NCBI GenBank assembly: GCA_964580865.1
Contig: CAZONM010000001.1
Span: forward strand, 2,825-66,824
DNA from: an uncultured Myxococcales bacterium
GTDB taxonomy: Bacteria > Myxococcota > UBA727 > VGSZ01
Length of the DNA: 64,000 bases
Direction: 5' to 3'
Shown here: positions 25,344-58,644 of the stretch, piece after piece
How positions within the stretch are numbered: the stretch's first letter is position 1
How the letters are laid out: every line of letters starts with the position of its first letter
Notes under the pieces: generated by a model
Told to the model about the DNA's origin: nothing
What the model saw: the letters and a program-made list of their open reading frames with translations, nothing else
Databases searched by the model: none
Translations under genes and position numbers: made by a program

Positions 25344-25358
25344 AAGAGGTCCTGCGTC

Positions 25359-26876: not shown

Positions 26877-26898
26877 CGCGACGAGCGCGTGTGGAGGC

Positions 26899-28341: not shown

Positions 28342-28342
28342 C

Positions 28343-30592: not shown

Positions 30593-30595
30593 CGG

Positions 30596-38833: not shown

Positions 38834-39892
38834 ATGCGGACCTACCGAGTCATCACCGACCGCCCGTTGCGCTTCGCCCTGGCCGGGTGCGGCCGTATCG
38901 CAGAGAGCCACTTCGAGGCCATCAAGAAGCATGCGGGGCGGTGCGAGCTGGTGGACGTGTGCGATGTCTCGGCCACGGCGTTGGAGGCAGCGGCGACGAA
39001 GACGGGCGCGCGTCCGCACCGCTCGTTCACCGGCATGCTCGCCGCCACCAACGCCGACTGTGTGGTGCTCACCACGCCGAGCGGGTTGCACCCCGCGCAG
39101 GCCATCGAGGCGGCGCGCGCGGGCTTCAACGTCATGACCGAGAAGCCCATGGCGACCCGGTGGCACGACGGCCTCGCCATGGTGAAGGCGTGCGACGACG
39201 CCGGCGTTCGGCTGTTCGTGGTCAAACAGAACCGCCGAAACCAGACGCTGCAGCTGGTCAAGCAGGCCGTCGAGCGGCACCGCTTCGGGCGCATCTACAT
39301 GATCGGCGTCAACGTCTTCTGGACCCGGCCGCAGTCGTACTACGACAGCGCCGCGTGGCGCGGCACGTGGGAGTTCGACGGCGGCGCGTTCATGAACCAA
39401 GCGAGCCACTATGTGGACCTGCTCGATTGGATCGGCGGCCCGGTGGAGAGCGTCATGGCCTACACCGGCACGCTGGCGCGCGACATCCAGGTCGAGGATA
39501 CGGGCGTCGCCGCCCTCAAGTGGCGCAACGGCGCCATGGGGACGCTCAACGTCACGATGCTGACCTACCCGAAGAACCTGGAAGGCTCGATCACCATCCT
39601 CGGCGAGAAAGGATCGGTGCGCGTGGGGGGCGTGGCGGTCAACGAGATCCAGCATTGGCAGTTCGCCGACCCCGACCCCATGGACGCCACCATCAAGGAC
39701 GCCAGCTACCAGACCACGTCGGTGTATGGCTTCGGCCACCCGCTCTACTACGACAACGTCATCAGCACGCTGCGCGGTGAGGCCGCTCCAGAGACCGACG
39801 GCCGCGAGGGCCTGCGCTCGCTGGAGCTCTTGATCGCCATGTACCTCTCGGCGCGCGACGGCAAGCGCGTCAGCCTGCCGCTCTCCTACTAG
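38834..39892 (+). CDS. Gfo/Idh/MocA oxidoreductase, WbpB-like UDP-N-acetyl-2-amino-2-deoxyglucuronate 3-dehydrogenase
   Basis: 352 aa; Rossmann N-terminus [15 protein letters not shown]; followed directly by WbpD- and WbpE-like genes. Confidence 0.75.
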
Positions 39893-39894
39893 CC

Positions 39895-40488
39895 ATGCCC
39901 GTCACCATCCACCCCTCCGCCATCGTCGACGCGGGCGCCGTGCTCGGCGACGGCTGTCGCGTCTGGCACTTCGTCCACATCAGCGGCGGAGCGCGTATCG
40001 GCGCGCGCTGCTCGTTCGGGCAGAACGTCTATGTCGGGAACGACGTGGTCATCGGCGACAACGTCAAGATCCAGAACAACGTCTCGGTCTACGACGCGGT
40101 CACGCTCGAGGACGACGTGTTCTGCGGTCCGAGCATGGTGTTCACCAACGTCATGAACCCGCGCTCGGCCGTGGTGCGCAAGAACGAATACCGGCGCACG
40201 TTGGTGAAGCGCGGCGCCACGCTCGGTGCCAACTGCACCGTCGTGTGCGGCCACACCGTGGGCGCACACGCGTTCGTGGGCGCGGGTGCGGTGGTGTGCC
40301 ACGACGTGCCCGACTTTGCGTTGGTCATGGGCGTGCCGGCGCGCCAGGTCGGGTGGATGAGCCGATTCGGCGAGCGGCTGCGCTTCCCCGCCGGTGGCGG
40401 CGAGGCGGTGTGCCCTGCCACTGGCGATCGGTATCGCCTGGTCGACGGCGCGGTCGCGCTGGTCGAGGAAGCGGGCCCTCGGCCATGA
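39895..40488 (+). CDS. hexapeptide-repeat N-acetyltransferase, WbpD-like (UDP-2-acetamido-3-amino-2,3-dideoxy-glucuronate N-acetyltransferase)
   Basis: 197 aa; left-handed beta-helix repeats ([33 protein letters not shown]). Confidence 0.75.
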
Positions 40489-41603
40489 GCAGCACGACGA
40501 CGCTCGAGTTCATCGATCTCAGGTCGCAGTACGCCGCTCTGCGCGACACCATCAACGCGCGCATCCAGCGCGTGCTCGATCACGGGCAGTTCATCCTCGG
40601 CCCCGAGGTCAAGGAGCTCGAGGAGAAGCTGGCGGCGCTGACCGGCGCGCGTCATTGCGTCACCGTGGCGAGCGGCACCGAGGCGATCCTCATCTCGCTG
40701 ATGGCGCTGGGGCTCAAGCCCGGTGACGAGGTCATCACCACGCCCTTCACGTTCGCCGCCACGGCCGAGATGATCGTGTTGCTCGGTGGTCGCCCGGTGT
40801 TCGTCGACGTCGAGGACGACACCTGCAACCTCGACGCCCGGCAGGTGGAAACCGCCGTCACCTCGCGCACGCGCGCCATCATGCCGGTGTCGCTGTATGG
40901 GCAGTGCGCCGACATGGCGGAGCTGAACGCCATCGCGGCGCGACACGGCCTGCCGGTCATCGAGGACGCGGCCCAGAGCTTCGGCGCCACGTATCGAGGC
41001 ACGAAGAGCTGCAACCTCTCCACGCTCGGTTGCACCAGCTTCTTTCCGTCGAAGCCGCTGGGCTGCTACGGCGACGGCGGCGCCGTGTTCACGAGTGACG
41101 ACGCGTTGGCGCAGGCCGTACGAGAGCTGCGCGTGCACGGACAGAGCCAGAGGTACACCCACACGCGCGTGGGCGTGGGTGGTCGCATGGACACGCTGCA
41201 GTGCGCGGTGGTGCTCGGCAAGCTCGAGCGGTTCTCCTGGGAGCTCGAGCGGCGGCGCGCCCTCGGCGACCGCTATCGCGCTCGGCTCCGCGAGCTCGGC
41301 GTGGCGGCCACGCCGATTGCGGTGCGCGCCGACCGTGACTGCGTGTGGGCGCAGATGACGGTGCTCGTCGACGAGCGCGATCGCGTGCAGGGGCGGCTCA
41401 AGGAGCTCGGCGTGCCCACGGCCGTCCACTACCCCAAGGTGCTCCATCACCAGCCCGCCTACGCCGGCCTGGCGCCGCCCACCGCATGTCCGAACGCCGC
41501 GCACGCCGCGTCCCGCGTGATGAGCCTGCCCATGAGCGCCGATCTGACCGATGCGCAGCTCGAGCGTGTGGTGACGTCGCTGGCGCAGGCGACGCAGCGC
41601 TGA
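40485..41603 (+). CDS. DegT/DnrJ/EryC1/StrS-family PLP aminotransferase, WbpE-like
   Basis: Start overlaps the wbpD-like stop (ATGA); motifs [40 protein letters not shown]. Confidence 0.8.
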
Positions 41604-41649
41604 CTCACGAGGCTTCCGAGGAACCGTTGGCACGACACACCGCGCGCTG

Positions 41650-43300
41650 CGGAATCGATCGTACATGTAGAATCATCGTACATCCTCGCCGCGTCGGTCC
41701 TCACAGCCGAGCAGACCCGTGGCCGAGCAAGTTGGTCGACGCGTCCACCCACTCGCCCAGCGTCGAGCACGCGACCCGGAAGCCTCGCGCTTGAAGATGC
41801 CCTCCTGCCGGTGCAGCGGGATGTTGTCGCAGAACTTCACCACCAGCACGAGCGCCAGGAACCCGGGCTCCACCATCGACTTCGAAATCGTGCGCTCCGG
41901 CATGTCGGCGATGAAGACGCGGGTGGCGGCACCAAGCAGCGGCGGCAGCGACGTCGGCGATTGCGCCGGCTGCGACGGCGCCGCGTCCGCCCGCGCAGGT
42001 TCCGGCGCTGTGTACTCCTCGCGCACCAGCTCGATCCTCACCTTCGACGCCGTGATCCGCTCGATGAGCTGCGTCTTCTCTTCGCCGATCTTGACGAGCC
42101 GCTCACCACCGGGCGCGAGCCGCTCTGGGGGGACGAGCACGAACCGACGAGGTGGCAGATCCTCGAGCGCGAGCTTGCGCCGGCCGCGCGGCGACGGCTC
42201 CTTGTTCGTGCTCGCCGACCGCCCCGCCTTCGCACCGGCGATCGCCTTGGCGGCCTGGTCAGCCGCCCGCTGCGCCTCGTCGAGCGCGCCCACGTCGCCG
42301 GCCCGCATGCTGCCGATCGTCGCCAAGAACTCGAACAGCGGCAGTTACGCTTCCTCGTGCCGCACCCGCTCGGCCTTCTGCCCGAACGCCAGGCGCTACA
42401 ACAGCTCGTGCTCCAACAGGAGCTTGTCGTACGCCGTGCATCAGTGCGTCGAGCATCGCCACGGTCTCGAGGTGGCGGGCACGCAGTGTGTTGACGTCGG
42501 CGGGCTCCTCGTTCACGTCGTCATCTATCGACTCCCCGAGGAGGTTGGGGAGGAAATCGGCACGCGCGTACGCTGTTGGCGAGGGCGTTGACCGCGCGCT
42601 CGGTGGCCACGTCCTGCTTTGTTCGCACGGCGACGGCGCCCACCAGGCACCAAGCCGTCCATTGAGCAGGGCATGTCGATGGGTTCGAGCGCAGCCAGGG
42701 TCCGTCGTCCGCTGGGGACCATACGCGCTCCAAGGCTGCGAAAACGCGGATGAGCTCGGCATCGATGAACGCGGGCGGCACTCGCACGACGCGTCCGTTG
42801 GCGAGCGCGACTTGATGCGCTCGCGCTCCAGGTGGCCGGTGACAGCCGCCACTACCTCGACGAAGGTCCCTTCCACTTCAAGAGTGCGGCCGACCCCGAG
42901 CGCGATCTCGGCGACCCGAGGAACCATCGCCACCAGGCGAGCGTCGCCGGCTTCACGCGCCCGCACGCCGCGAACGCGTCCCGCGACGGGCCGCTCCTCG
43001 AACACCGCGCCCCTCGGCGCGCCACACGTCGCTGGACTCCCTCGCCATGCGTCACCTCCGCGCGCGCCACCACGCGGCGCGGCGGCGCGGGTCACTACGT
43101 GGTTGTCGGTTGTAGACGGGCACGCGCACGACTCCGGCGAGGCCAGGCGTGACGACCAGTACTGCCGCTCCCCACGGTGGGCACGGATCGTCAGCTGCGG
43201 GCCGACCGGAGCGGCGAAGATCATGCGACCAGCTCTACCGCCCCGCACGCGATCAGTTCACCCACCCGTTGACATCCCGCTGAGCGCGACAGCCTCCCAG
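41650..43300 (-). mobile_element. degenerate IS66-family insertion sequence remnant (frameshifted and truncated; no intact transposase)
   Basis: Broken ORFs only. The 41673..42326 reading frame is clearly TnpC-like; a direct repeat ATCGTACAT...ATCGTACAT lies at 41658..41683 at its truncated end; the region sits exactly at the GC-content transition. Confidence 0.5.
41673..42326 (-). pseudogene. IS66-family transposase (TnpC) N-terminal fragment, inactivated
   Basis: LPPRRFVLVPPERLAPGGERLVKIGEEKTQLIERITASKVRIELVREEY corresponds to the TnpC zinc-finger region but has lost the CxxC cysteines; PGFLALVLVVKFCDNIPLHRQEGIFKREA matches the conserved PGLLAHVLVSKYADHLPLYRQ block; the DDE catalytic domain is absent because the frame ends at the wbpE-like gene. 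Confidence 0.5.
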
Positions 43301-43401
43301 CGCTTCGCGAAGGCGCCTCCACTGGACATCGACGCCGTCGATGATATCGACGAACCCGGCTGCTGGGATGGCCAGCGATGCCTGGCTGGAGGTCGCCTCC
43401 C

Positions 43402-44571
43402 ATGATCAAGCGTGATGTTGTCCGACAGTACAACCTTCCCCTCGAGGTCAAGTACTGCAAGAAGTGCACGGTAAGCAACCAGAGACCACGCATCACCTTC
43501 GACGGCGACGGCGTCTGCTCAGCATGTCGGTTCGCGGACTTCAAGCGTCAACAAATCGATTGGGCCGAACGCGAACGTGAGCTGGTCGACCTCTGCAACC
43601 GGCATCGGCGCGGCAACGGAGACTATGACGTTATCGTTCCCTGCAGCGGTGGCAAGGATGGTGGGTTTGTCGCTCACCAACTCAAGCATAAATACAACAT
43701 GAATCCGCTGACCGTGACATGGGCCCCACTCCGAGCAACGGAGATTGGACGACAGAACCTCGACGCGTTCATTGCCAGCGGGTTTGACAATGTCTTGGGA
43801 ACGCCGAATGGCCGTCTCACGCGCAAGCTGACGAGGCTCTCGACGCAATACCTAGGTGATCCCTTCCAGCCGTTCATCTATGGCCAAACCAATTTTCCGC
43901 TCCATATGGCCGTGAAGCACCACGTGCCACTCATCATGTACGGCGAGAACGGTGAGGTCGAGTACGGCGGCGATATGAAGAATGCCTTTCGGCCAACCCG
44001 TGACATCCAAGACCACGATAGGCACTATTTCTCGGGCATGCCGCCAGAATTTTGGATTGAGCACGGCATTGGCACCGGAGACCTGAAGCCGTTCATGGCG
44101 CCGCCATACGAAGAGATTGCGGCGAACAAAACAGAGATCCACTTCCTGGGCTATTACAAGTTTTGGGATCCTCAGGAAAACTTCTATTACTGTCGCGAGC
44201 ACACTGGCTTTACCCCGAACCCAGAGCGCTCCGAGGGCACCTATTCCAAGTACGCAAGCCTCGATGATCGCGTTGATGGCTTCCATTACTTCTTGGGCTA
44301 CATCAAGTTCGGGATCGGTCGCACAACCTCCGACGCCGCGCATGAGATTCGCGACGGAAAGATCGACCGCGAAGAAGGTATTGCGTTGGTCAAACGGTAC
44401 GACGGTGAATTTCCGCAAAAGTACTATCCCGAGTTCCTTGAATACATCGGCCTTTCCGACGATGAGTTTCAGGAGGTCGTTGACAGTTGGCGCTCGGACC
44501 ACCTTTGGCATCGTACAGCAACTGGTTGGGAGCTGCGGCATGCGGTCTGGCACGAGGCGCACCGCCAGTGA
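43402..44571 (+). CDS. N-acetyl sugar amidotransferase (WbpG/WbuX/PseA family, PP-loop ATP pyrophosphatase)
   Basis: ORF 43378..44571, start at Met9; N-terminal CxxC...C zinc ribbon (CKKCTVSNQRP...CSAC); PP-loop SGGKDG; lower GC than the flanks. Confidence 0.8.
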   Translation: MIKRDVVRQYNLPLEVKYCKKCTVSNQRPRITFDGDGVCSACRFADFKRQQIDWAERERELVDLCNRHRRGNGDYDVIVPCSGGKDGGFVAHQLKHKYNMNPLTVTWAPLRATEIGRQNLDAFIASGFDNVLGTPNGRLTRKLTRLSTQYLGDPFQPFIYGQTNFPLHMAVKHHVPLIMYGENGEVEYGGDMKNAFRPTRDIQDHDRHYFSGMPPEFWIEHGIGTGDLKPFMAPPYEEIAANKTEIHFLGYYKFWDPQENFYYCREHTGFTPNPERSEGTYSKYASLDDRVDGFHYFLGYIKFGIGRTTSDAAHEIRDGKIDREEGIALVKRYDGEFPQKYYPEFLEYIGLSDDEFQEVVDSWRSDHLWHRTATGWELRHAVWHEAHRQ

Positions 44572-44585
44572 GCGGAGTGCCACTC

Positions 44586-45389
44586 ATGACGTCACGGCAC
44601 GCCCAGATGCTGCATCACGGCGGAGCAGGATCCCATCGGGTCCGCCTAATCCCGCGCCTCGATATCAAGGGACCCAACCTCATCAAGGGCGTCCAGCTCG
44701 AGGGGCTGCGTGTGATAGGGAGCCCGCAGCTGTATGCATCGAGGTACTACGAGGCGGGTGCGGATGAACTCCTCTATGTCGACGTTGTCGCGAGCCTCTA
44801 CGGTCGCAATAGCCTCCACGAGATCATTCGCCGTGCGGCCGAAGATGTCTTTGTGCCGCTGACCGTGGTCGGCGGACTACGAAGCGTCGATGACGTTCGT
44901 GATGCGCTGCGCGCCGGCGCCGACAAGGTTGGCATCAATACCGCTGCCGTGAAGCGGCCCCTGCTCATCGCTGAGGTCGCGAGGGCCTTCGGTTCGCAGT
45001 GCATGGTTCTTTCGATTGAAGCCAAGCGCATCGGACCCGGTCAATGGGAGGCCTATACCGACAACGGTCGTGAGCGAAGCGGCCTGGATGTCGTGGCATG
45101 GGCCCGTCGTGGCGTTGAGCTTGGAGCGGGCGAGATCGTATTGACGTCTGTTGACCGAGAAGGTGGTCGCCAGGGCTACGAGTTGGAGTTGATCTCGGCC
45201 GTTGCTTCTGCGGTAGATGTTCCAGTGATCGCAAGCGGTGGGATGGGCAAACCGATGGACCTCGTTGACGCAGTGGCGGCGGGAGCGAGTGCTGTAGCAA
45301 TGGCCGATATCCTCCATTACGAACGCGCCACACTCTCTCAACTCCGTGAGGCGGCGCGTGGGGCTGGGATTGAAGTAAGGCATCCATGA
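44586..45389 (+). CDS. imidazole-glycerol-phosphate-synthase cyclase-subunit homologue (HisF-like; WbuZ/HisF2) partnered with the sugar amidotransferase
   Basis: ORF 44487..45389, start at Met34; (beta/alpha)8 HisF motifs RLIPRLDIKG, VPLTVVGGLRSVDD, VIASGGMGK. Confidence 0.8.
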   Translation: MTSRHAQMLHHGGAGSHRVRLIPRLDIKGPNLIKGVQLEGLRVIGSPQLYASRYYEAGADELLYVDVVASLYGRNSLHEIIRRAAEDVFVPLTVVGGLRSVDDVRDALRAGADKVGINTAAVKRPLLIAEVARAFGSQCMVLSIEAKRIGPGQWEAYTDNGRERSGLDVVAWARRGVELGAGEIVLTSVDREGGRQGYELELISAVASAVDVPVIASGGMGKPMDLVDAVAAGASAVAMADILHYERATLSQLREAARGAGIEVRHP

Positions 45390-46018
45390 AGGCCGTCACG
45401 GTTGTCGACCATGGCAGTGGCAATCTGCTCAGCGTCGCGCGTTCGCTAGAGCGAGTCGGCGCCACGGTGACGTTCTGTTCTGATACGGCCAGTCTTCTTC
45501 GCGCGGAGCGCCTAGTCCTTCCTGGGGTCGGCGCGTTTGCGACAGGAATGCAGGGGCTATCCTCCAGAGGGCTCGTCGACGCTCTACGGTCGTATTCGGA
45601 AACCGGGCGGCCGATCCTAGGCATTTGCCTCGGCATGCAGTTGCTCGCTGATGTGAGCGAGGAGTTTGGCGCACACGAGGGGCTACGGCTTATTCACGGG
45701 CGTGTTCAAATGATCCCGCGGCGAGACGTGGACGGTAATGCATTGCGGGTTCCGTTTGTCAACTGGGCGGAGCTGCAGCCGTCCCAATCATGGGAGTCAT
45801 CGATTCTCGCCGATGTCCCAACTGGAAAGGCGTTCTATTTTGTGCACTCGTACCACCTCGTAGTCGACAATCCCGCACACGAATTGGCCCACTACGTCTA
45901 CGGTGGGCGGAAGATCGCAGCCGTTGTCCAGGCTGGCGCCGTTACCGGCTGCCAGTTTCATCCGGAGAAGAGCGGGCCGGCCGGGCACGCGCTTCTCGCG
46001 CGCTTTCTCGCCGGTTGA
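45386..46018 (+). CDS. class-I glutamine amidotransferase, HisH-like (WbuY/HisH2)
   Basis: 210 aa; catalytic GICLGMQLL Cys and the HPEKS C-terminal motif; ATGA overlap with the preceding gene. Confidence 0.8.
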   Translation: MKAVTVVDHGSGNLLSVARSLERVGATVTFCSDTASLLRAERLVLPGVGAFATGMQGLSSRGLVDALRSYSETGRPILGICLGMQLLADVSEEFGAHEGLRLIHGRVQMIPRRDVDGNALRVPFVNWAELQPSQSWESSILADVPTGKAFYFVHSYHLVVDNPAHELAHYVYGGRKIAAVVQAGAVTGCQFHPEKSGPAGHALLARFLAG

Positions 46019-46033
46019 CGAGGACGATCCTCC

Positions 46034-47509
46034 TTGGCGCGCCTGGGCAGCATCGACGACCTCCTATCGATCGAGGACGATCCGGCGATCCTCGGTTTCC
46101 GTTGCCCGGCTACGGGACTACTCCTTTGGCCACTCGTTCGGGTTGCGTTCCTGCGAGAAATCCTCGGTGAGGTGTTCTACGGCGGCGCGACGGCCCCAGC
46201 GCTTTCGGGATATTCCTTACGCGCGGTCCAGTCCTTGGCGAAGGCAGCTTGGCACGATTTTCGGCATTCGCCGAATGGTGCCGACGTTGTAGTCATGGCC
46301 TCCGGTGCGGGCCGGGTGATGCGGAGCGGCCAGTCGTACAATCGCCTTGCCGATCCATTCGTCGACGTCTTGCCAAAGGGCACGATCCTTATCGAGGATC
46401 TCTTTGGCTGGCAGTGGCCAGTGCTACGCCCAGGGTCAAGAGTGCTATTCCACACGCCGTTTCAGGTCGCCGCGAGCGTCGCCGGGCGGTGTTTGGTTCG
46501 TAGCCGTCACCGGTCGCTCGCCGATCAACTGATCGCATTCGTCGTCGATCGGGCGGGTAAGTCGCTCGGCTGGGCACCTCGTCCGATTCGACAGGCCAGC
46601 GTTGCCAGGATGCTTGCTCACAAGATGGCGGCGCTGCCGGTTCTTCAGCATGGGTACCGACAATTGTTCGAGAGGGTCCGTCCACGGCTTCTCTTGAAGG
46701 AAGAGGCCTGCTATGGCCCGTCGGCAATGCTGATTTCGGTTGCTCGCGAGTTTGGCATAATAACGGCTGAATACCAACACGGCGTTGTAGCGCCTGGTCA
46801 CGATGCGTACAATTTCGCCCCGACGCTTTGCGCATCACCCGCCTGGAGGGCAATCCTGCCAGATTGGTTCCTCAGCTACGGGCAATGGTGGGACGACCAA
46901 ATTAACGCACCGATCAAGCGGCGTGTGATTGGCAATCCGTATCGCAGTCTGTTACTAGAGGGATCCGGAACGGGGTCAATGACGTCTCGCCAGCATCGTG
47001 AGGTATTGGTACTCGGTGACGGCATTGAGACCAACGCCTATGTTGGCCTTGCTCGCGCGCTTGCGCAGGCGCTACCAACATGGCACGTCGTATTTCGGCC
47101 CCATCCACTCGAGCGGCAGCTCGTGTCGGACCGGCACCCGAATGGCATTCCTGTCGACGACGGTCGATTTTTGGAGGTCGATTTGCAGGGGGATCTCTAT
47201 CGTTCCTTCAAGCGGTCGACGGTCGTCATTAGCGAGATGTCAACGGGCCTGTTCGAAGCTATGGGATTGGTACAGGTACCGCTGCTTTGGGACACACCGA
47301 AGTCGCGGTTCACCTTGCCAACTCACAGCTTTGCCTCGTTTCGTACGGTCGATGAGTGCGCGGAGATTCTACGGAACCATGTCGGCGATGATGCTTGCCG
47401 GGACGACGCCGGCGCCATCTGGGCACCGGATTGGCAGTCAAGGTACCGCGCATTTCTCAACGACGTTCTTCAAGGCAATAATGCTCCTCTGGTCGAGAAT
47501 GTTGTGTAG
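46034..47509 (+). CDS. hypothetical protein of the island (491 aa) with a C-terminal GT-B/Rossmann-like domain (putative glycosyl- or glycerophospho-transferase-like)
   Basis: No named family recognised; C-terminal segment VLVLGDGIETNAYVGLARALAQALPTWHVVFRPHPLE...STVVISEMSTGLFEAMGLVQVPLL; paralogous to the C-terminal half of 49835..50737. Confidence 0.55.
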   Translation: MARLGSIDDLLSIEDDPAILGFRCPATGLLLWPLVRVAFLREILGEVFYGGATAPALSGYSLRAVQSLAKAAWHDFRHSPNGADVVVMASGAGRVMRSGQSYNRLADPFVDVLPKGTILIEDLFGWQWPVLRPGSRVLFHTPFQVAASVAGRCLVRSRHRSLADQLIAFVVDRAGKSLGWAPRPIRQASVARMLAHKMAALPVLQHGYRQLFERVRPRLLLKEEACYGPSAMLISVAREFGIITAEYQHGVVAPGHDAYNFAPTLCASPAWRAILPDWFLSYGQWWDDQINAPIKRRVIGNPYRSLLLEGSGTGSMTSRQHREVLVLGDGIETNAYVGLARALAQALPTWHVVFRPHPLERQLVSDRHPNGIPVDDGRFLEVDLQGDLYRSFKRSTVVISEMSTGLFEAMGLVQVPLLWDTPKSRFTLPTHSFASFRTVDECAEILRNHVGDDACRDDAGAIWAPDWQSRYRAFLNDVLQGNNAPLVENVV

Positions 47510-48241
47510 CGGGGCGCTGATGTCTGGTGGCCGATCTTTTTCGCGCGCCCGGTGTGGCCGGCGTCCAAGGGTGCTGGTGGTTCTGAGCGAGCGAATGAGG
47601 TGGCTGCGCACGAAACGGCTGGGCATGAAATGTAGTCGCTCCCGCCGTAGGCGCTGCGCTATCGCCATGCCGAAGTCGCGGCCTGGTGAAACAGGGACGA
47701 AGAGGACGGATGCAAGGGCTACATCTCTCATTCAAGACGACTCGTTCCACACGAAGTCGACGCGTCGTGGGAACGGTATTTCGGACCGATCGTTGAGCCA
47801 GCAGATACAGCAAGCTCACGCCGGCGTCGCCACGCGGCGGATCGTGCCCGGAAAGCGGATCGCTTGCATCGGCCCGTTGTGTCGTCGTGCTGGAGGTTTC
47901 CTGGCCAACGCACTTGCCACGACATCGCCGTCGCTCTGTTGGTTTGACAGTGGGCCGGTAGGGCCTTGCGCGTTATCTGCAAGGGCGAACGGTTGCGTTG
48001 CTGCTTCGCCACCCTCGGTCTTTGCCAGGGTCCCGGCGTCGCGTCGTGGGTTCATGGAGCGAAGCACGGAGCTCGGGTGGCCTTTGATCTCACTGCAACT
48101 TGCGGCGTCCGGCTCACTCAATGCACCTGCTCGCCGCTATTGCAGGTACCAACTCTCCAGCGTTGCGCGCCACGGTCCGCATCGGGACGATATCTGGGTG
48201 GTTCTGTCCGCTTTGCCGGCGATGTCCGCCGCCTGGCGGTC

Positions 48242-49534
48242 ATGATGCTGAAAAGTGGGTTCATATACCTGGCAGCGAATGTCGCCTCGTCGGCTGTACC
48301 GTTCTTCTTGCTGCCCGTCCTGACGAGAGCGTTGGCGCCTGAGGCCTTTGGAGCGATCGTCGGGTTTTCTTTGGTGGCGACCATTGTGGCACCAATCGCT
48401 GGACTAAATGCTCATGGCGCGGTTGGCGTCGCATGGTTCAACCGTGACCGGGAGCATCTCCCCAGTTATGTCGGCGCAGCTGTCCTTGTTGCTTTCACAA
48501 GCACAGCGGTATGGGCGACTATCGCCGCGTTCGTCGTTTCGCAGACACCGATCGTGGACGCCGTGCCTGCCGAATGGGCGGCCGCAGCCGTTGTCATGGC
48601 TGGCGCCCAGGTCGTTCTCCAGATGCGGTTGGTGCTTTGGCAAAGCCAGAAGCGGCCGATGCCGGTCGCGACCATGCAATTCGCAGGTAGCATCGTACAT
48701 ATTGGGCTCGCGCTCGTGGCAGTGCTTGTTCTTGGACTCGAAGCACCGGGCCGAAACGGCGCGGCGGTTGTTGCAGCGGTCTTGTTTGCCGTTCTTGGAG
48801 TAGCTGCGCTGGCATGGGACGGCAATCTGACGTTGCGGGTTCGGCGCGACGACATTTTCGGGGTGGTGCGGTTCGGTGGCTTGCTCGTACCGCACGCGTT
48901 GGGCGGGGCCCTGACAGTCACCGTTGATCGAGTGGTCGTGGCAGCATGCTTGGGGCCTGATGCACTTGGAACCTACGGGGCCGCCGCCCAACTAGGCGCT
49001 GTCGTCGCCATCGCTGCAGATGCTTTCGGCAAGGCGTACAGTCCATGGCTGTTTGAGCGACTCGCGGCTGACGACGAGTCGGAGCGGCTCGTTGCTGTCG
49101 GCGCCATGTATGCTCTTGCCCCCCTTGCCATACCCGCCGGCGGCGTTGCCGCTGTTGCTCTGACAGCTCTCAGTAGCGTCGCTCTGGGCCCTGAATATGG
49201 CGCAGCCGCTGAACTCTTGCCATGGTTCATCGTTGGAGGGGTCGCGACGATCATCTACTTGTTGGTATCGCCGTTGTTTTTCTTTCACGACCGAACCGCT
49301 CGCCTGAGCTCCACAACGCTACCCTGCGCCGCCGTAGGGGCGCTCTGTACCTTCGCGCTAGCAAGAATCGACGGCGCTCGCGGCGCGGCCGCGGGCTTCG
49401 CGTTGACGCAGACGCTCCTGACGACGGGCGTGTGGGTCGTTGCTTTCCACACGTTCGACCTGCCATGGAGAAAACCATATCTTGCATTGCGGACTTGCTG
49501 GCGCCTTCTTCGGAATGTTGACGCCAAACCCTGA
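48242..49534 (+). CDS. wzx: Wzx-type polysaccharide flippase (MOP/PST family)
   Basis: ORF 47966..49534, first ATG at 48242 (MMLKSGFIYLAANVASSAVPFFLLPVLTRAL, the typical PST N-terminus); ~12 TM helices. Confidence 0.7.
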   Translation: MMLKSGFIYLAANVASSAVPFFLLPVLTRALAPEAFGAIVGFSLVATIVAPIAGLNAHGAVGVAWFNRDREHLPSYVGAAVLVAFTSTAVWATIAAFVVSQTPIVDAVPAEWAAAAVVMAGAQVVLQMRLVLWQSQKRPMPVATMQFAGSIVHIGLALVAVLVLGLEAPGRNGAAVVAAVLFAVLGVAALAWDGNLTLRVRRDDIFGVVRFGGLLVPHALGGALTVTVDRVVVAACLGPDALGTYGAAAQLGAVVAIAADAFGKAYSPWLFERLAADDESERLVAVGAMYALAPLAIPAGGVAAVALTALSSVALGPEYGAAAELLPWFIVGGVATIIYLLVSPLFFFHDRTARLSSTTLPCAAVGALCTFALARIDGARGAAAGFALTQTLLTTGVWVVAFHTFDLPWRKPYLALRTCWRLLRNVDAKP

Positions 49535-49834
49535 CTCGGCCGGCCATGGTGCATGCGATCTCGATCCTGGCGCAACGCTGAGCTCGTTTCCACAGGCCCT
49601 CGCGCACGGTGGCAGGTTCCGCGCTCGCCGTCCGGACGCTGTTGGGCGGCTGGATGCCTCAGCCGAGCGGTGCAGCATCAACAACGTCGGTCACGCCGCC
49701 CATCAGGATGTCGGTGGTCGCCGGAGAATCGGCGATACTCACGGGATGACGGCGCGCATTCGCCAGCTCGAGAGCATTGGCTACCTTTCGCGGGACGTTG
49801 GCGCGCGAATGCGCCAAGCGGGAGCGAGCGCTTC

Positions 49835-50737
49835 ATGAGCGAGCGGCGCGCCTCTGAACTGATGGCCAAGCGCGAGCGCGTCGACGCGCGCTCCTCCGTG
49901 CCTAGGAGGCACGCACGTGACGAGGCGGTGTGGCCGATGGTCCTGCACTCGTTCGTCGACGCACCTCGTCTCGCCTTCCCGGGCGCGCCGCCGAGCCGGG
50001 CGGTGCGCGCATGGGCCGTCGCGCGGCGACGGCAGCAGGGAGCCTCCGGACGCCCAAAGCGGTGCGCGCGCGCCGCCCGTATCGGTGCGCCCAGTAGGCT
50101 GCCTCGTTCCGAAGATGTGTCGTTCGCGCGCGTGGGGGCTCGTGCCATCGTCGGCGGCAACCCGTGGCTGTCCTTGTGGTCGTCCGCCGGCGCCGACGCC
50201 GACGTCGAGGACGCGCGCGCCGCAGCCGCCGCGCTGCGCCGCCGCGCCGGCGCGTGCCCCGTGGTGCTGGTGACGCTGCAGCCGGGGATCACCGATGGCG
50301 CCGAGCTCGCGCTGGTGCAGCGGGTGGCACGCGCCACACAGGGCCGGCTCTGGTTCTGGATCCGCTTGCATCCCGCCATGCTCGAGCGCCTCGACGAGGT
50401 GCGCCGGGCCTTCGCCACCCTCGAGCACTGCACCGTCGACGAACCCACCGAGCTGCCGCTGCCCGCGCTGCTCGGTGCCTGCGACGCGCACCTGACCCAC
50501 AGCTCTTCGACGGTCATCGAGGCGGCGCAGTTCGGCGTGCGCTCCGTCGTCACCTCCGTCTACGGCGCCGAGCTCTACCAGCGCCACATCGACGACGAGC
50601 GGCTGACGCTCGCGAGCGGGGGCGCTGACGTCGTCGCCGCGGCGGTGCTGCAGGCGACCAAGCGTGGTCGTGCGGGCACGTCGCACACGGGCAGCATCGA
50701 CGTGGCGCTGGCGCAGGTGCTCGGGGAGGCGCGGTGA
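49835..50737 (+). CDS. hypothetical protein, truncated paralogue of the 46034..47509 protein's C-terminal GT-B-like domain; start uncertain
   Basis: CPVVLVTLQPGITDGAELALVQRVARATQGRLWFWIRLHPAMLE...SSTVIEAAQFGVRSVV aligns to the island protein's VLVLGDGIETNAYVGLARALAQALPTWHVVFRPHPLE...STVVISEMSTGLFEAMGLVQVPLL; the first ~100 codons are Arg-rich and may be non-coding. Confidence 0.35.
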   Translation: MSERRASELMAKRERVDARSSVPRRHARDEAVWPMVLHSFVDAPRLAFPGAPPSRAVRAWAVARRRQQGASGRPKRCARAARIGAPSRLPRSEDVSFARVGARAIVGGNPWLSLWSSAGADADVEDARAAAAALRRRAGACPVVLVTLQPGITDGAELALVQRVARATQGRLWFWIRLHPAMLERLDEVRRAFATLEHCTVDEPTELPLPALLGACDAHLTHSSSTVIEAAQFGVRSVVTSVYGAELYQRHIDDERLTLASGGADVVAAAVLQATKRGRAGTSHTGSIDVALAQVLGEAR

Positions 50738-51891
50738 CGGCCACCATCGTCACCTCGCCCGCCCCGCGCACGGAGCGCCGCACGCTGCGCTTGGGCGTCG
50801 CGTTGGTGCTGCTGTGCGCCATCGCGGTGGGCGGCGCGGTGTTTCTTGCCACCATCGGTATCGACGCGCTCGAGGGCAAGAACGAATTCCAGTTCTTCGC
50901 GGACTCCGGCACCTATCACGCGGTGGCGCGCGGCGACGTCGTCGGCATCGAGGAGCTCAACGAGCTCATCGGCATCGTCGGCAACTTCCTCGGGCCGCTG
51001 ATGATCGTGAAGCTCGCGGGTGGCAACTACTACGCGATCTTGGTCATCAACTGCGTGCTGTTCTTCTGGTCCTTGGTCCTCATCACGCGCGCCCTGAGGA
51101 TCGACGCCCCGCGGCTCATGCTCTTCCTCTTTCTCAACCCGATGACGGTCTCGAGCCTCCTGTCGGTCAACAAGGAGATCCTCTCGATCGTGTTCGTCGC
51201 ACTCCTGGTGAGCGCCCTGGCGCGTCGATCGCTCGTAGCGTTGGCGCTGGCTGCGGCGCTCTCGGTGCTCGTGCGTTGGCAGCTCACCCTCTTCATCGTC
51301 GGTCTCCTGGCGACGATCTCACCGCTCAACCCGCTGCGCGCGCGCCGCGGCTGGACCATCATCGCGATACTGGTGACGTTGTCGGCGCTCTATGCCGCGA
51401 CCCTCGACGTGATCGAGCCGGTGCGCATGACCTTCGAGTCATCGGCGGAGGAGTACGAAGGGTCTGGGTTCTACGCGGCGCTGGTGGGATATCAAGATCG
51501 TGGCCTGTACTGGCTGATCTTCCCGGCCAAGGCGGCGAGCTTGTTGTTCGCGCTCGGGTTGCGCATCGATCGCCTGGTGGCGCCCGACAACATCTACAAT
51601 GACGTTTGGCAGCTGTTGCACTCCACCACCATGCTGGTGACCTTCGTCCTGGTCTGGCGTCGTCGGCGCCTCACCCTGGCAAACGATCTCGTCTTCGTGT
51701 CGGCCGTGTACATCGCGCTCTTCACGCTCTCGCCCATCTACACGCCGCGCTACTTCTACGCGGCGTTCGTGCTGTGGGCCATCGCGCTCGCCGCCGACAG
51801 TGACCGCCCGCCGCTGTTCGCGCCGCGCGCGTCACGGGCGGCCACGCGAGTGTCGGTATCGACGACGCCAGAGGCCCCGGCGCATGCGTGA
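50734..51891 (+). CDS. polytopic membrane protein, candidate O-antigen/EPS polymerase (Wzy-like)
   Basis: 385 aa; 10-11 predicted TM helices, no named family recognised; sits with Wzx/Wzz/OPX genes; GTGA overlap with the preceding ORF. Confidence 0.45.
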   Translation: MTATIVTSPAPRTERRTLRLGVALVLLCAIAVGGAVFLATIGIDALEGKNEFQFFADSGTYHAVARGDVVGIEELNELIGIVGNFLGPLMIVKLAGGNYYAILVINCVLFFWSLVLITRALRIDAPRLMLFLFLNPMTVSSLLSVNKEILSIVFVALLVSALARRSLVALALAAALSVLVRWQLTLFIVGLLATISPLNPLRARRGWTIIAILVTLSALYAATLDVIEPVRMTFESSAEEYEGSGFYAALVGYQDRGLYWLIFPAKAASLLFALGLRIDRLVAPDNIYNDVWQLLHSTTMLVTFVLVWRRRRLTLANDLVFVSAVYIALFTLSPIYTPRYFYAAFVLWAIALAADSDRPPLFAPRASRAATRVSVSTTPEAPAHA

Positions 51892-53539: not shown

Positions 53540-54640
53540 TCACGCGGCGCGTCGGCCACCCCGGAGCCGTCGGTAAGCGCCGGCCGCGAAGTTCCACAGC
53601 CAGCGCTCGCTCGGGTACGCGTCATGCGCCTTCCCCGGACGCGCGAGGTAGGCGTCGAGCTCGCCGCGCGTCCAGCCCATCTTGTTGAGGAAGTACTGGA
53701 TATCCGCCTCGAGCGCGTCGGCGTCGGGGTACGGGCTCTGCTGCAGGAGGCGCAGCGCCTCGTCGCGGGTCATCTGCCCCGCCACCACCAACGTCGACAA
53801 GTGGAGGCGCCGCTTGTCGATGCCGAACTTCTTCGGCAGCAGGTAGCCCTGATAGAAGCGCGTGAACACCGACTCGTAGTGCTTGTAGGGGTAGGGCTTG
53901 TAGCTCATCTCGGCCACCAGCACCTCGAGCGCGCGCGCCTTCTGGTAGTCGAAGAAGTCGAGGAAGCTCTCCCACCGAATGCCGCGGACGTGCTCGCACG
54001 TGATGTAGTCGACGACGCCGATGAGCGGGAACGTCTGCAGCGGACGCCCGTTGCCGAACGTCCGCCACAGCGCGCGGATGTTGGTGGCGTCGAACTTGAA
54101 CCAGTTCCACCCCTTCGGCATCGCCATGCCCTCGGTGGCCGTGTTGGTGCCGCCGAGGATGTGCTTGATGCCCCACTGCTTCGCCTGTCGGTAGTTCACC
54201 GCCAGCATCGCGTTGTCGTACAGGAGCTCGACGTCGATGACGTCGGCGCGGAAGAACGCGTTCATCAGCTCGCGGTATTCGTCCCAGTTGATGACGTGCG
54301 TGTAGTAGTCGACGCCGAGGCGATCGACCAAGTTCTCGATGTTGTTCTGCGCGAGCTCGGTGTTCCAGCCGTTGTCCATGTGCACGGCGAGCGGGCGCAG
54401 GCCGTGCTGCTTGGCCAGGTACAGCACCCAGGAGCTGTCGACACCGCCCGACAGGCCCACCACGCAGTCGTACGCGCGGCCCCGGCCATCGGCCTTCACG
54501 CGCTCGAGGTACGCGTCGCGGCGGCGCGCGCGCTGAGCCTCGTCCATGAAGAGCACGTGGCGCTTGCTCGCCAGGAAGTCACGGCAGTAGTTGCACACCC
54601 CGAGAGCATCGAAACTGATGTCGCGCGCGCTGGTGTCCAT
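53540..54640 (-). CDS. second N-acetyl sugar amidotransferase (WbpG/WbuX/PseA family paralogue) in high-GC DNA
   Basis: ORF 53540..55060, the likely start is Met141 (54640: MDTSARDISFDALGVCNYCRDF...); PP-loop VVGLSGGVDSS; the upstream 140 codons are Arg/Pro-rich and not conserved. Confidence 0.75.
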   Translation of the reverse strand: MDTSARDISFDALGVCNYCRDFLASKRHVLFMDEAQRARRRDAYLERVKADGRGRAYDCVVGLSGGVDSSWVLYLAKQHGLRPLAVHMDNGWNTELAQNNIENLVDRLGVDYYTHVINWDEYRELMNAFFRADVIDVELLYDNAMLAVNYRQAKQWGIKHILGGTNTATEGMAMPKGWNWFKFDATNIRALWRTFGNGRPLQTFPLIGVVDYITCEHVRGIRWESFLDFFDYQKARALEVLVAEMSYKPYPYKHYESVFTRFYQGYLLPKKFGIDKRRLHLSTLVVAGQMTRDEALRLLQQSPYPDADALEADIQYFLNKMGWTRGELDAYLARPGKAHDAYPSERWLWNFAAGAYRRLRGGRRAA

Positions 54641-55028
54641 CACGCAGCGCGCGCAGGTCGTGGGGTTCGAGCTTGACGATGCCACTGGTTCACCCGCCGG
54701 CCGCACCGTGGGCGGCACCCTCGTGTCGTGTTCGCCATGTCCGCGCGCGACGCCGCTCGACGGTCTCGGCGACGGCGTCGTCGCGGCGCTCGACGCATGG
54801 GCGCGCCATGCTCGGTCGCCACGCGGCGCCCTCGCCGGCACCACCGGCACGCGCTCATCGGCGGACGTGTCGCGCGCCAGCCTACTGCCCCACGCTCGAG
54901 GTTCGTAGCGGGAAGTGTGCGGCGACCCTCCGTTCCGCTCGCCGCCGGTCCGCCGGCAACCGACGTGGCCGCGAGCAGCGGGGTCGAGCGCCTTGACAGC
55001 AGGCGCGGGGTCCGCGACACCGAATGCG

Positions 55029-58639: not shown

Positions 58640-58644
58640 GCGCC

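Follow-up and report, generated by a model that had tools for sequence, protein, structure and literature searches.

How did a block of low-GC DNA come to lie within a GC-rich polysaccharide locus, and what does it do there? The stretch analysed, 64 kb in length and called the window below, comes from a 'deltaproteobacterial' (Myxococcota-type) MAG lineage of about 71% GC, and 15.9 kb of it is collinear with contig JADZDP010000094.1 of GCA_020850995.1 at 89-94% DNA identity.

Host locus and base composition

The block is a sharp-edged island within a Wzx/Wzy-type surface-polysaccharide locus, where the preliminary description had placed it. Its host surroundings comprise a left arm of three genes and, further downstream, a native amidotransferase trio.

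38834..39892, plus strand: WbpB/WlbA-like UDP-sugar 3-dehydrogenase, left arm (Pfam GFO_IDH_MocA)
39895..40488, plus strand: WbpD/WlbB-like hexapeptide N-acetyltransferase, left arm (Pfam Hexapep)
40485..41603, plus strand: WbpE-like aminotransferase, last host-type gene before the junction (PF01041)
53540..54670, minus strand: WbuX2, native second N-acetyl-sugar amidotransferase (NASAT), WbpG-like subtype, host GC (TIGR03573)
57,863-58,660, minus strand: native HisF2 (NF038364, AglZ/HisF2 acetamidino family, 382 bits, cutoff 310)
58,645-59,262, minus strand: native HisH2 (TIGR01855, 208 bits)

The conserved WbpB-WbpD-WbpE arm makes a 2,3-diacetamido-2,3-dideoxy-hexuronic acid precursor. The WbpB/WlbA-like gene (GC3 0.94) scores 623 and 573 bits against PDB 3Q2I and 3Q2K, respectively, both of which we take to be WlbA, the WbpD/WlbB-like protein scores 291 bits against PDB 3MQG, a 'Lipopolysaccharides biosynthesis acetyltransferase', and the WbpE-like aminotransferase (GC3 0.91) scores 406 bits against PF01041 and 426 bits against the WbpE structure 3NYU. 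WbpA and WbpI are not present in the window. WbuX2 reaches 262 bits on TIGR03573 (cutoff 203) and shares 42-44% identity with the type-2 amidotransferases found in two related loci, L005 and L008; its partners HisF2 and HisH2 have GC3 values of 0.91-0.92. By family assignment the host locus owns a WbpG/HisH2/HisF2-type acetamidino trio besides that of the island. The window also contains the GDP-L-fucose genes Gmd and Fcl, and no FucNAc pathway was found in it.

In 1-kb windows, GC content is 0.58-0.62 at 43-49 kb and 0.68-0.76 on either side, with island GC at 0.54-0.63 overall and flanking GC at about 0.70-0.74. In 400-bp windows, it drops from 0.705 at 43,001-43,400 to 0.56 at 43,401-43,800, and rises from 0.63 at 49,401-49,800 to 0.70-0.74 by 49,601-50,200. 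The island starts at 43,322 and ends between 49,535 and 49,834, which gives it a length of ~6.2-6.5 kb. The conspicuous low-GC block that had been reported from about 43.3 to 49.6 kb is thereby borne out, as is its A/T-richness in third codon positions: GC3 is 0.65-0.69 in the five island genes, and 0.931 ± 0.026, with a minimum of 0.869, in 29 host genes taken from this window (z -9.5 to -11). A leave-one-out CAI-like index gives 0.26-0.37 for the island genes and 0.746 ± 0.061 for the host genes (z -6.2 to -7.9), so that the sliding GC, GC3 and codon-adaptation check that had been proposed shows a clear dip. The donor had a GC content markedly below that of the host, with a GC3 around 0.65-0.69. 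A second, milder dip at 18-28 kb (GC 0.63-0.67) coincides with the narGHJI-narK region; it reflects amino-acid composition rather than foreign origin, because GC3 there stays host-like, at 0.94-0.97.

Borders of the island

The sequences that flank the island on either side are as follows.

41673..~42450, minus strand: IS66-family TnpC N-terminal pseudogene fragment (NF033517, PF03050)
42451..43321, no strand: filler of high GC (~0.70) and no coding periodicity, between the IS66 fragment and the island
43322..43405, plus strand: remnant of a CMP-nonulosonate synthetase gene, last 28 codons (comparison with L005 and L093)
49535..49834, no strand: right junction interval, in which GC climbs to host level
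49835..50737, plus strand: o300, of family A2 and host GC, a distant and decayed paralog of the island protein o491 (homolog alignment, hhalign)

The IS66 remnant that was said to border the island does exist and is truncated, but it had been given too large an extent (41.65-43.3 kb), only ~0.8 kb on the minus strand being recognisable. It ends 48 positions into the DDE domain (PF03050 positions 1-48 of 284), at a distance of 70 bp from the stop codon of WbpE, and carries three in-frame stops in the translation of its 5' part. Its match to NF033517 amounts to 53 bits (cutoff 180) and covers profile positions 5-131 of 387. It is about 30% identical to plasmid IS66 transposases, with a DNA match of 72% identity over ~120 bp. 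Searches for TnpA, TnpB and the terminal repeats of the element found none. The adjoining filler has no Pfam match at E<=1 on either strand and no nonulosonic-acid gene remnants by tblastn. It is fast-evolving: a sister lineage, L089, shows 15 differences, and 8 of them lie at 42,406-43,199, which makes this part 4.5 times as dense in changes as the coding DNA of the island (P=0.005).

The exact left breakpoint is at 43,321/43,322, inside a CMP-nonulosonate synthetase gene. The remnant of this gene reads 'LDIDAVDDIDEPGCWDGQRCLAGGRLP*' in the window, 'LDIDTPDDIDELHRRLGQRRLAGGRIQ*' in L005 and '...LAGGRVP*' in L093. Its DNA is 76-79% identical to these two loci, starting exactly at 43,322 against both, while upstream of that position identity is only at background level; its stop overlaps the start of the first intact island gene (ATGA). 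No repeat, terminator or gene remnant was detected in the right junction interval, and no integrase, tRNA, flanking direct repeats or IS ends were found at the island borders.

Relatives and origin

In a comparison of the 160 most similar genomic and metagenomic loci, the slot 3' of the WbpB-WbpD-WbpE arm proved hypervariable, and the island block was absent from every one of them; the best WbpE identity among the sampled relatives of the locus is 76%. The best relatives of the island itself are metagenome contigs, whose proteins are 60-87% identical and whose GC3 is above that of the island. In the closest ones, the gene order is WbpE, 4,6-dehydratase, NeuC-like, NeuB-like, NTP-transferase and CMP-transferase, followed by WbuX, HisF, HisH, o491 and Wzx. 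The P0002 locus, L005 and L093 each contain a collinear block (WbuX 86-87%, HisF 83-84%, HisH 71-72% and o491 60-62% identical), and the type-1 trio, that of the island, adjoins CMP-transferase and NeuB genes in these three and in L008. In contrast, the whole 64 kb lacks any NeuB, NeuC or CMP-transferase gene. The island is therefore best described as the broken-off distal half of a larger legionaminic/pseudaminic-type nonulosonic-acid (NulO) module rather than a complete unit, the assignment of the trio and of o491 to NulO being drawn from gene neighbourhood and subfamily similarity only.

It has to be considered whether low GC is simply intrinsic to wzx and glycosyltransferase genes, with no recent transfer, or whether the junctions arose as an assembly chimera. 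In L005 and L093, the genes for o491 and Wzx do have a GC3 of 0.75-0.83, somewhat below that of their flanks (0.84-0.91), and the sequence seems to come from a metagenome-assembled contig. The dip observed here is, however, far larger and covers the highly conserved WbuX and HisF genes, whose orthologues in L005 and L093 are flank-like (GC3 0.84-0.87); together with the host-level GC3 of the native WbuX2, HisF2 and HisH2 genes in the same locus, this argues that it is not a property of the gene families. At its left edge the island has a truncated gene that is of donor type and not of the L029 type. Both junctions were recovered in independent SRA assemblies (L001, 100% identical), and the left one also in L089, which is 99.75% identical across it. 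This explanation is thus largely refuted and very improbable, and the earlier proposal of horizontal acquisition is well supported by foreign GC3, codon usage and sharp edges.

Island-encoded proteins

The five intact genes are those announced in the preliminary description.

43402..44571, plus strand: WbuX1, NASAT of the Legionella/PseA-like subtype (TIGR03573, 8WEX)
44586..45389, plus strand: HisF1, HisF/WbuZ-like cyclase-type subunit (PF00977, TIGR03572)
45386..46018, plus strand: HisH1, class-I glutamine amidotransferase (glutaminase) subunit (TIGR01855, PF00117)
46034..47509, plus strand: o491, 491 aa, predicted GT-B-fold enzyme of the large unannotated family A1 (structure model, homologs)
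47510..48241, no strand: spacer of 733 bp without coding periodicity (flat GC by codon phase)
48242..49534, plus strand: Wzx-type flippase (PF01943)

WbuX1 (GC3 0.69; TIGR03573 344 bits, cutoff 203) had been called WbpG-like; membership in the WbpG/WbuX family holds, but its subtype is Legionella/PseA-like, with 355 bits (E 6e-105) against the L. pneumophila NASAT structure 8WEX, to which WbuX2 scores only 33 bits. Its translation shows the PP-loop SGGKDG and the CxxC...GxCxxC zinc motif, as defined for NASATs (PMC10607449). Conservation of this type-1 subtype across phyla lies at 77-87%, which points to a universal substrate. HisF1 (GC3 0.65; PF00977 206 bits) is 84% identical to its L005 counterpart, and its 264 bits on the WbuZ profile TIGR03572 are under the cutoff of 299.7. 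HisH1 (GC3 0.68; TIGR01855 178 bits, cutoff 105, with a PF00117 match) contains the motifs GICLGMQ and FHPEKS. The flippase (GC3 0.65; PF01943 35.9 bits, cutoff 28.2) is 65.5% identical to the L005 Wzx over its full length. The spacer has no Pfam or Rfam match and holds no HisH remnant, its scores equalling those of shuffled controls.

o491 and its host paralog

o491 matches no Pfam or NCBIfam profile. It is nevertheless not the orphan that it was first taken for, as it has more than 350 homologs and its structure model confidently adopts a GT-B fold. It is predicted to be a glycosyltransferase; it need not be a transferase, since GT-B folds include 2-epimerases, and the 2-epimerases NeuC and WecB are among the top hits. 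NulO genes lie within 10 kb in six of seven distinct o491-family loci, as against 4 of 160 WbpE-anchored background loci (P=5e-8), the exception being Herminiimonas L091. The type-2 trio, however, is found in all seven, so that o491 is tied to the 2,3-diacetamido-uronic acid pathway no less closely than to NulO.

Beyond the right junction, o300 has 1,247 homologs, mostly of 490-525 aa, to which only ~50,126-50,737 aligns well, at their residues ~300-510 (49% identity to P0244 residues 316-486, E 4e-45). Its N-terminus gives a weak collinear match to a homolog (E 0.14) that includes an exact 'SFARVG'. Most likely, as judged from these alignments, o300 has undergone an internal in-frame deletion of ~195 codons that removed the invariant QHG core; its last 200 codons retain a GC3 of 0.925. 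Families A1 and A2 align by hhalign at 99.4% (E 1.5e-21, 420 columns), and in L029 an A2 paralog gene lies directly 3' of the CMP-transferase gene. The decay of o300 is consistent with its functional replacement by o491.

Selection and substrate

Relative to L089, six of the seven differences in island genes are synonymous (P=0.0012), indicating purifying selection, as judged from only seven substitutions in contigs that were built from public reads. None of the five ORFs is shortened relative to its homologs, frameshifted or interrupted by stops, and the catalytic motifs are intact. Their integrity and the purifying selection together suggest that the cassette is in use. It might instead be a non-functional relic that lost its substrate with the NulO genes and is decaying, given the IS66 fragment, the cut CMP-transferase gene, the 733-bp spacer and the broken o491 paralog around or within the block, and a window devoid of biosynthetic genes for the presumed substrate. 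The state of the five genes, next to a filler that changes so much faster, makes this improbable.

If the cassette is used while NulO genes are absent, the sugar is made outside the window or a different N-acetylated sugar is modified. In the latter case, the same acquired cassette might act on the WbpB-WbpD-WbpE product (2,3-diacetamido-2,3-dideoxy-uronic acid) or on some other N-acetyl sugar belonging to this locus, and the missing NulO genes would be irrelevant to its present function. The island does lie directly 3' of the genes for that product, and its own genes are under purifying selection without NulO genes in the window. A WbpB/D/E-like arm or a type-2 trio accompanies o491 in every family locus examined, and Herminiimonas L091, where NeuB is missing, combines WbpA-B-D-E with Wzx, an o491 homolog, HisH/HisF, Wzy and FnlABC-like genes. 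In addition, neither the window nor L091 has a WbpI-type 2-epimerase, the kind of enzyme that o491 structurally resembles. On the other hand, that chemistry is already provided for in the host by a WbpG/HisH2/HisF2-type trio. WbuX1 is of the Legionella subtype, whose conservation across phyla speaks for one substrate, the type-1 trio stands beside CMP-transferase and NeuB genes in four loci, and the stump of a CMP-NulO synthetase gene sits in the island itself. We regard this alternative as serious but rather unlikely.

Proposed origin and function

The probable explanation is that a five-gene fragment of a NulO module (~6.3 kb, 43,322 to ~49,600) was horizontally acquired in a hypervariable polysaccharide slot and is in use. 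A low-GC donor cassette would have entered directly 3' of the WbpB-WbpD-WbpE arm, and its proximal NulO genes would have been replaced by the decayed IS66 fragment and ~0.9 kb of filler, possibly through an IS-associated deletion or an illegitimate join. Going by family membership, HisH1 would hydrolyse glutamine and HisF1 would channel the ammonia to the PP-loop/zinc enzyme WbuX1, which would use ATP to turn a sugar N-acetyl into an acetamidino group. The GT-B enzyme o491 might then put the modified sugar onto the undecaprenyl-linked repeat unit, and the unit so formed would be flipped across the membrane by Wzx. As the island copy took over its function, o300, the distant o491 paralog native to the host, may have decayed.

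Comparison with known systems

A lower-GC centre is typical of wbp-like polysaccharide clusters. The B-band O-antigen (wbp) cluster of P. aeruginosa O5 resembles the present locus in its row of WbpB-, WbpD- and WbpE-like enzymes, its Wzx/Wzy-type assembly and its dedicated HisH/HisF/NASAT trio for an acetamidino sugar, in which WbpG forms ManNAc3NAmA (PMC10607449). Here, in contrast, the WbpG/HisF2-like trio is the native host-GC set and not the island, WbpA (of WbpA-B-D-E) and WbpI are missing from the window, and the island contributes a second trio, which is of another subtype, together with an o491-type enzyme. To our knowledge, the O5 cluster has neither of these additions.

The Campylobacter enzymes PseA/Cj1324 make 5-acetamidino legionaminic or pseudaminic acids. 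The NASAT of the Legionella pneumophila LPS locus (8WEX) shares the PP-loop and tetracysteine zinc motif with WbuX1; it has 468 aa, with an extra disordered segment missing from other family members (PMC10607449). The island differs in having no NulO biosynthesis genes, and the substrate of WbuX1 is putative. WbuX, WbuY and WbuZ of E. coli O145 have the same three-protein architecture (TIGR03573, TIGR03572 and HisH families), and WbuX acts there from L-FucNAc to L-FucNAm (cited in PMC10607449). In contrast, HisF1 is below the WbuZ equivalog cutoff, and the fucose genes of the window are those for GDP-L-fucose, not FucNAc. The Pse/Leg-derivative transferases Tanf_01245 and TFUB4_00887 of Tannerella forsythia (PMC5420450) are comparable by analogy only.

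Unlike in IS-associated serotype-switch loci, the imported module is incomplete here, and in place of an active element there is a small, ancient piece of an IS. IS-associated mosaicism and serotype switching reportedly occur in O-antigen and capsule loci, as in the O4-to-O12 switch of P. aeruginosa ST111 (bioRxiv 10.1101/2024.04.26.591252). The island shares with such loci a foreign block in the variable centre between conserved arms and an IS remnant at a junction. Serotype switching through this island is plausible; the type of event is ordinary, and it is the detail of its documentation here that is unusual.

A compositionally foreign block in a polysaccharide locus

The polysaccharide locus around the island extends from ~33.4 to ~60.7 kb and encodes a GT4-type initiating transferase, a Wza-like exporter, a Wzz-like protein, a WbpB/D/E-like arm, the putative polymerase-like membrane protein o385, Gmd and Fcl for GDP-L-fucose, and transferases of the GT2 and GT1 types. 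Immediately to the left of the island, three genes with host-like GC3 values match solved enzymes of the 2,3-diacetamido-2,3-dideoxy-uronic acid pathway. The WbpB-like gene scores 623 bits against PDB 3Q2I, which we take to be WlbA, the WbpB equivalent; the WbpD-like gene scores 291 bits against 3MQG, an LPS acetyltransferase and presumably WlbB, the WbpD equivalent; the WbpE-like gene scores 426 bits against the WbpE structure 3NYU. Between moaA and the locus lie ~550 codons (31,734-33,415, minus strand) with strong host-type codon periodicity, GC3 values of 0.94-0.97 and no Pfam match. At the other end, the locus is closed by a DUF4838 / GH67-N-like gene (~60,700-62,900, minus strand), and a 38%-identical gene closes the related locus on contig L093 (12,429-14,774, minus strand).

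The preliminary description had proposed a low-GC island of horizontal origin, to be checked by GC, GC3 and codon adaptation, and each of these measures bears it out. In 1-kb windows, the segment from 43 to 49 kb has a GC content of 0.58-0.62, against 0.68-0.76 in both flanks; windows of 400 bp show a fall from 0.705 to 0.56 within 43.0-43.8 kb and a recovery within 49.4-50.2 kb, and at the left edge the switch is completed within ~200 bp. The third codon position is the sharpest measure because the genome is very GC-rich: the island genes (n = 5) have GC3 values of 0.65-0.69, against 0.931 +/- 0.026 (minimum 0.869) for the host genes of the window (n = 29), which corresponds to z scores of -9.5 to -11. 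A leave-one-out CAI-like index likewise places the island genes (0.26-0.37) far outside the host range (0.746 +/- 0.061; z -6.2 to -7.9). Codon-position composition, codon usage and sharp borders thus agree with the compositional definition of horizontally acquired DNA. A milder GC dip, at 18-28 kb, is available as an internal control. It was rejected as another island, since its GC3 values are 0.94-0.97 and its genes are narGHJI and narK, so that amino-acid composition rather than foreign DNA accounts for it.

The block does not have the attributes of a classical genomic island: no integrase domain occurs in any ORF scanned, Rfam detects no tRNA or other RNA family across the whole window, and no flanking direct or inverted repeats or IS ends were found at the island borders. 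Its nearest relatives have GC3 values of 0.75-0.87, higher than its own.

The host and the variable slot

The NarG protein is 95% identical to those of 'Deltaproteobacteria bacterium' MAGs, and window positions 15,560-31,422 align collinearly, with DNA identities of 89-94%, to contig JADZDP010000094.1 from GCA_020850995.1, likewise a 'Deltaproteobacteria bacterium' assembly. On these two grounds the host is a close relative of this high-GC MAG. Synteny stops at 15,560, upstream of which the relative carries ParB, a DDE transposase and a sigma factor, and the window Na/Ca and Na/H exchangers and trehalose genes.

A host within the Burkholderiales was considered, as the best WbpE matches among 185,579 species genomes come from Roseateles, Pelomonas, Rubrivivax, Rhizobacter and others, and the similarity of the IS66 fragment next to the island also seemed to point there. 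Identity to these WbpE proteins is at most 76%, scans of genomes and metagenomes returned no WbpE above this value, and the NarG identity together with 15.9 kb of synteny with the 'Deltaproteobacteria' MAG rules this lineage out. The Burkholderiales loci are relatives of the polysaccharide locus, not of the organism, and the conserved arm itself therefore has betaproteobacterial affinities. The best matches of the WbpB-WbpD-WbpE arm (38,834-41,603) among the same 185,579 genomes are almost exclusively from Burkholderiales, at 64-85% protein identity. An earlier transfer between classes may have involved the locus as a whole, not only the island.

Among WbpE-anchored loci in genomes and metagenomes, the 160 most similar ones vary widely in the genes 3' of WbpE, which include nonulosonic acid (NulO) sets, the type-2 acetamidino trio (WbpG/HisH2/HisF2-like), a second aminotransferase and others. 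The island block is present in none of the 160. That a five-gene cassette was acquired horizontally into a variable slot of the polysaccharide locus is well supported, and serotype variation, the meaning given to the island in the preliminary description, is a reasonable but tentative reading.

Genes of the island and the native trio

Searches of Pfam and NCBIfam return the gene content first described for the island: a WbuX-family N-acetyl sugar amidotransferase (NASAT), HisF-like and HisH-like proteins, a 491-aa protein (o491) and a Wzx-type flippase. The NASAT, WbuX1, scores 344.1 bits against TIGR03573 (cutoff 203.2) over profile positions 1-344 of 344. Its translation contains the PP-loop 'CSGGKDGG' and the tetracysteine zinc motif 'CKKCTVSNQRPRITFDGDGVCSAC', in keeping with the SGGKDS-like PP-loop and the CXXCXn[GN]XCXXC motif defined for NASATs in the paper on structure 8WEX (PMC10607449). 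HisF1 (44,586-45,389) and HisH1 (45,386-46,018) follow directly downstream, as dedicated partners would. From family HMM, motifs and neighbors, WbuX1 is predicted to be an N-acetyl sugar amidotransferase that converts N-acetyl into acetamidino groups. HisF1 has the PF00977 fold (206 bits). It scores 263.8 bits against the WbuZ model TIGR03572 (cutoff 299.7) and nearly the same, 259.9 bits, against the generic hisF model (cutoff 294.55), and is therefore described as a HisF-like partner rather than a certified WbuZ equivalog. The flippase matches Polysacc_synt PF01943 with 35.9 bits (gathering score 28.2) and aligns with the Wzx of the related locus L005 over 429 residues at 65.5% identity.

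A stretch without coding periodicity separates o491 from wzx:

47,510-48,241: spacer of 733 bp, inside the island, between o491 and wzx

It has no Pfam or Rfam match, and a decayed HisH or other gene was rejected because its scores equal those of shuffled controls. Among relatives, o491 is directly followed by wzx in L093, the gap is 95 bp in the P0002 locus, and a hisH gene lies between the two in L005.

A second set of acetamidino genes, of host GC, is encoded to the right of the island, where it is interrupted by the Gmd, Fcl and GT2 genes:

53,540-54,670, minus strand: native NASAT (WbuX2), 262 bits to TIGR03573
57,863-58,660, minus strand: native HisF2, AglZ/HisF2 family acetamidino modification protein, 382 bits (cutoff 310)
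58,645-59,262, minus strand: native HisH2, HisH

The locus thus encodes two different acetamidino-forming systems. WbuX1 scores 355 bits against the Legionella pneumophila structure 8WEX and WbuX2 33 bits; the two amidotransferases are of different subtypes. The preliminary description was right about the NASAT family and its hisF/hisH partners in the island; its label 'wbpG-like' gives way to a Legionella-like subtype. Proteins of this subtype are 77-82% identical to WbuX1 even in Janthinobacterium, Herbaspirillum, Polaromonas, Leptospira and Bdellovibrio, an unusual conservation across phyla; the native NASAT is 39-44% identical to its counterparts in related loci.

The left edge: a truncated nonulosonate module

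An IS66 remnant and a filler of host-like GC (~0.9 kb, to 43,321), devoid of coding signal and detectable homology, lie between WbpE and the island:

41,673-~42,450, minus strand: IS66 TnpC N-terminal fragment (NF033517, DDE_Tnp_IS66)

A decayed IS66 remnant had been reported here, and it exists, on the minus strand and smaller than the 41.65-43.3 kb then assigned to it. It scores 53.4 bits against NF033517 (cutoff 180) over profile positions 5-131 of 387, contains three in-frame stops and reaches only positions 1-48 of 284 of DDE_Tnp_IS66, with one end 70 bp from the WbpE stop; it is not an intact TnpC with a DDE domain. Neither TnpA nor TnpB was found in 42.4-43.3 kb, Pfam searches at E<=1 are blank over 42.3-43.4 kb, and there are no credible inverted or direct repeats that could represent IS66 termini or a target duplication. 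The element is a remnant only and, at ~30% identity to plasmid IS66 transposases, old.

What the island lacks becomes apparent from the contigs with the closest o491 homologs (P0002 locus, L005 and L093), in which a collinear WbuX-HisF-HisH-o491-Wzx block is preceded by a complete set of NulO genes, for a 4,6-dehydratase, NeuC-like and NeuB-like proteins, an NTP-transferase and a CMP-transferase, and these by the WbpB-WbpD-WbpE arm.

Protein identity between the window and its relatives
Hexapeptide transferase: 73%
WbpE: 75%
WbuX: 86%
HisF: 83-84%
HisH: 71-72%
o491: 60-61%
Wzx: 65% (L005), 38% (L093)

The gap between the two Wzx values hints at additional mosaicism. The five NulO genes are absent from the corresponding slot of the window and from the rest of the 64 kb. 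A search for their remnants in 41.6-43.3 kb yielded only a 28-codon CMP-transferase stump, whose frame ends at a TGA overlapping the WbuX ATG and reads LDIDAVDDIDEPGCWDGQRCLAGGRLP before the stop in the window and LDIDTPDDIDELHRRLGQRRLAGGRIQ in L005. Upstream of the WbuX start, DNA identity is 76-79% and starts exactly at 43,322 against both L005 and L093, with background levels further upstream. Because homology to the relatives' CMP-transferase gene, at its 3' end, begins precisely there, the left breakpoint is placed at 43,321/43,322 and thus within a gene for a CMP-nonulosonate synthetase. The stump resembles its counterparts in L005 and L093 but not the C-terminus encoded by another related locus, L029, which indicates that it arrived with the island. 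The alignment shows the imported block to be part of a larger NulO module whose biosynthetic half is missing.

Related lineages and selection

DNA of the window recurs in independent assemblies of five public sequencing runs. One contig (L001) covers both junctions at 100% identity; another (L089) covers WbpE to o491 at 99.75% identity, with 15 differences. The 3' end of WbpE and the open frame of IS66 contain none of the 15; eight are in 42,406-43,199, and seven are in island genes, where six are synonymous third-position changes (chance of at least six of seven 0.0012, with 24.4% of possible changes synonymous). Divergence in the filler is 4.5 times that of the island's coding DNA (P = 0.005). 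The numbers are small, with seven substitutions in the genes, and they argue that the island junction is real and common to two lineages, that the filler (42,451-43,321) evolves neutrally, and that the five island genes are under purifying selection. A module fragment that is still under such selection raises a testable question, that of the source of its substrate. Over 44,265-47,140, five of six synonymous differences have A/T in the window where L089 has G/C. One of the two lineages could still be ameliorating toward host composition, in a direction that only an outgroup would set.

The right edge: a decayed resident paralog

The right border lies somewhere in 49,535-49,834, and no mark was found in this interval. 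The first host-GC gene past Wzx follows:

49,835-50,737: o300

An exhaustive search found 1,247 homologs of o300, mostly of 490-525 aa. Good alignment is limited to the last ~200 residues of the frame, which correspond to homolog positions ~300-510, and o300 might accordingly be taken for a plain 5'-truncated gene. This reading was revised, as the family HMM and pairwise alignment detect a weak match between o300 residues 5-36 and positions 21-52 of the closest homolog, with an exact SFARVG at the expected position and then a direct, collinear jump to homolog residue 316. An in-frame internal deletion of ~195 codons, with loss of the invariant QHG core, is thus probable, not certain. The first 100 codons have poor codon usage (CAI-like 0.43), and the N-terminal part is for this reason possibly no longer translated as annotated.

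As single sequences, o300 and o491 show no significant similarity (hhalign 4%, BLASTP E 1.9). The relation between their families, A2 and A1, is significant only in profile-profile comparison, once full-length homologs were collected (99.4% probability, E 1.5e-21, 420 aligned columns, common motifs in the same order), and shows them to be distant paralogs. The island thus brings an intact o491-type gene next to a resident paralog that is broken. Locus L029 has an A2 gene directly 3' of the CMP-transferase gene.

Beyond o300, the window carries o385 and o546 (50,734-53,524), the former a multi-pass membrane protein and possibly a Wzy-like polymerase. Neither has a Pfam or NCBIfam match, and among 168 related loci the only homolog is one of o385 in L093 (60% identical); a metagenome scan with o385 found nothing.

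An unannotated GT-B superfamily

The 491-aa protein, first described as an orphan, has more than 350 homologs, none annotated and the best 62% identical. It belongs to no described family in Pfam or NCBIfam; no Pfam family recurs among 65 A1 members at E<=0.1, and the A1 profile finds nothing among PDB sequences at E<=10. Its two Rossmann-like domains match solved GT-B enzymes, and on this structural basis o491 is classed as a GT-B enzyme. The top structural matches include epimerases of the NeuC and WecB types, and the fold alone is compatible with a transferase or a 2-epimerase. A glycosyltransferase is the likelier assignment, held with some confidence, and an epimerase-like role seems unlikely.

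Gene neighborhoods are informative but ambiguous. NeuB or CMP-transferase genes occur within 10 kb in six of seven distinct o491-family loci, versus 4 of 160 WbpE-anchored background loci (P = 5e-8), the type-2 trio is present in all seven, and the Herminiimonas locus has no NulO genes. The leading specific guess for o491 is a nonulosonate transferase.

Discussion

Mosaic surface-polysaccharide loci that arise from horizontal exchange are well known, and the island itself is unsurprising in this respect. A useful feature of the case is that one breakpoint is defined at base-pair resolution, and a conserved arm closest to betaproteobacterial genes in a 'deltaproteobacterial' host shows how widely these modules move. 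To the preliminary description, the present analysis adds the exact left breakpoint, the missing biosynthetic half, the native second trio, the GT-B identity and large family of the supposed orphan, the decay of a resident paralog, the indications of purifying selection and the host lineage.

The part most worth pursuing is the unannotated GT-B superfamily. A1 and A2 would be two of its branches, with well over 1,000 members absent from Pfam, NCBIfam and PDB and tightly linked to Wzx flippases, acetamidino-forming trios and CMP-nonulosonate genes. Legionaminic and pseudaminic acid transferases are acknowledged to be poorly known (PMC5420450), which makes this family a reasonable candidate set. 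We tentatively suggest, as a minority expectation, that its members may be the missing transferases that put legionaminic/pseudaminic-type NulOs into Wzx-dependent repeat units. If so, the island would show such a transferase travelling as a unit with its acetamidino trio and matching flippase, and able to displace a resident paralog. The known enzymes to which o491 may be likened, by analogy only, are the Pse and Leg transferases of Tannerella, which are GT-B/TagB-like, carry an HP motif, are encoded downstream of CMP-NulO genes and transfer onto ManNAcA (PMC5420450).
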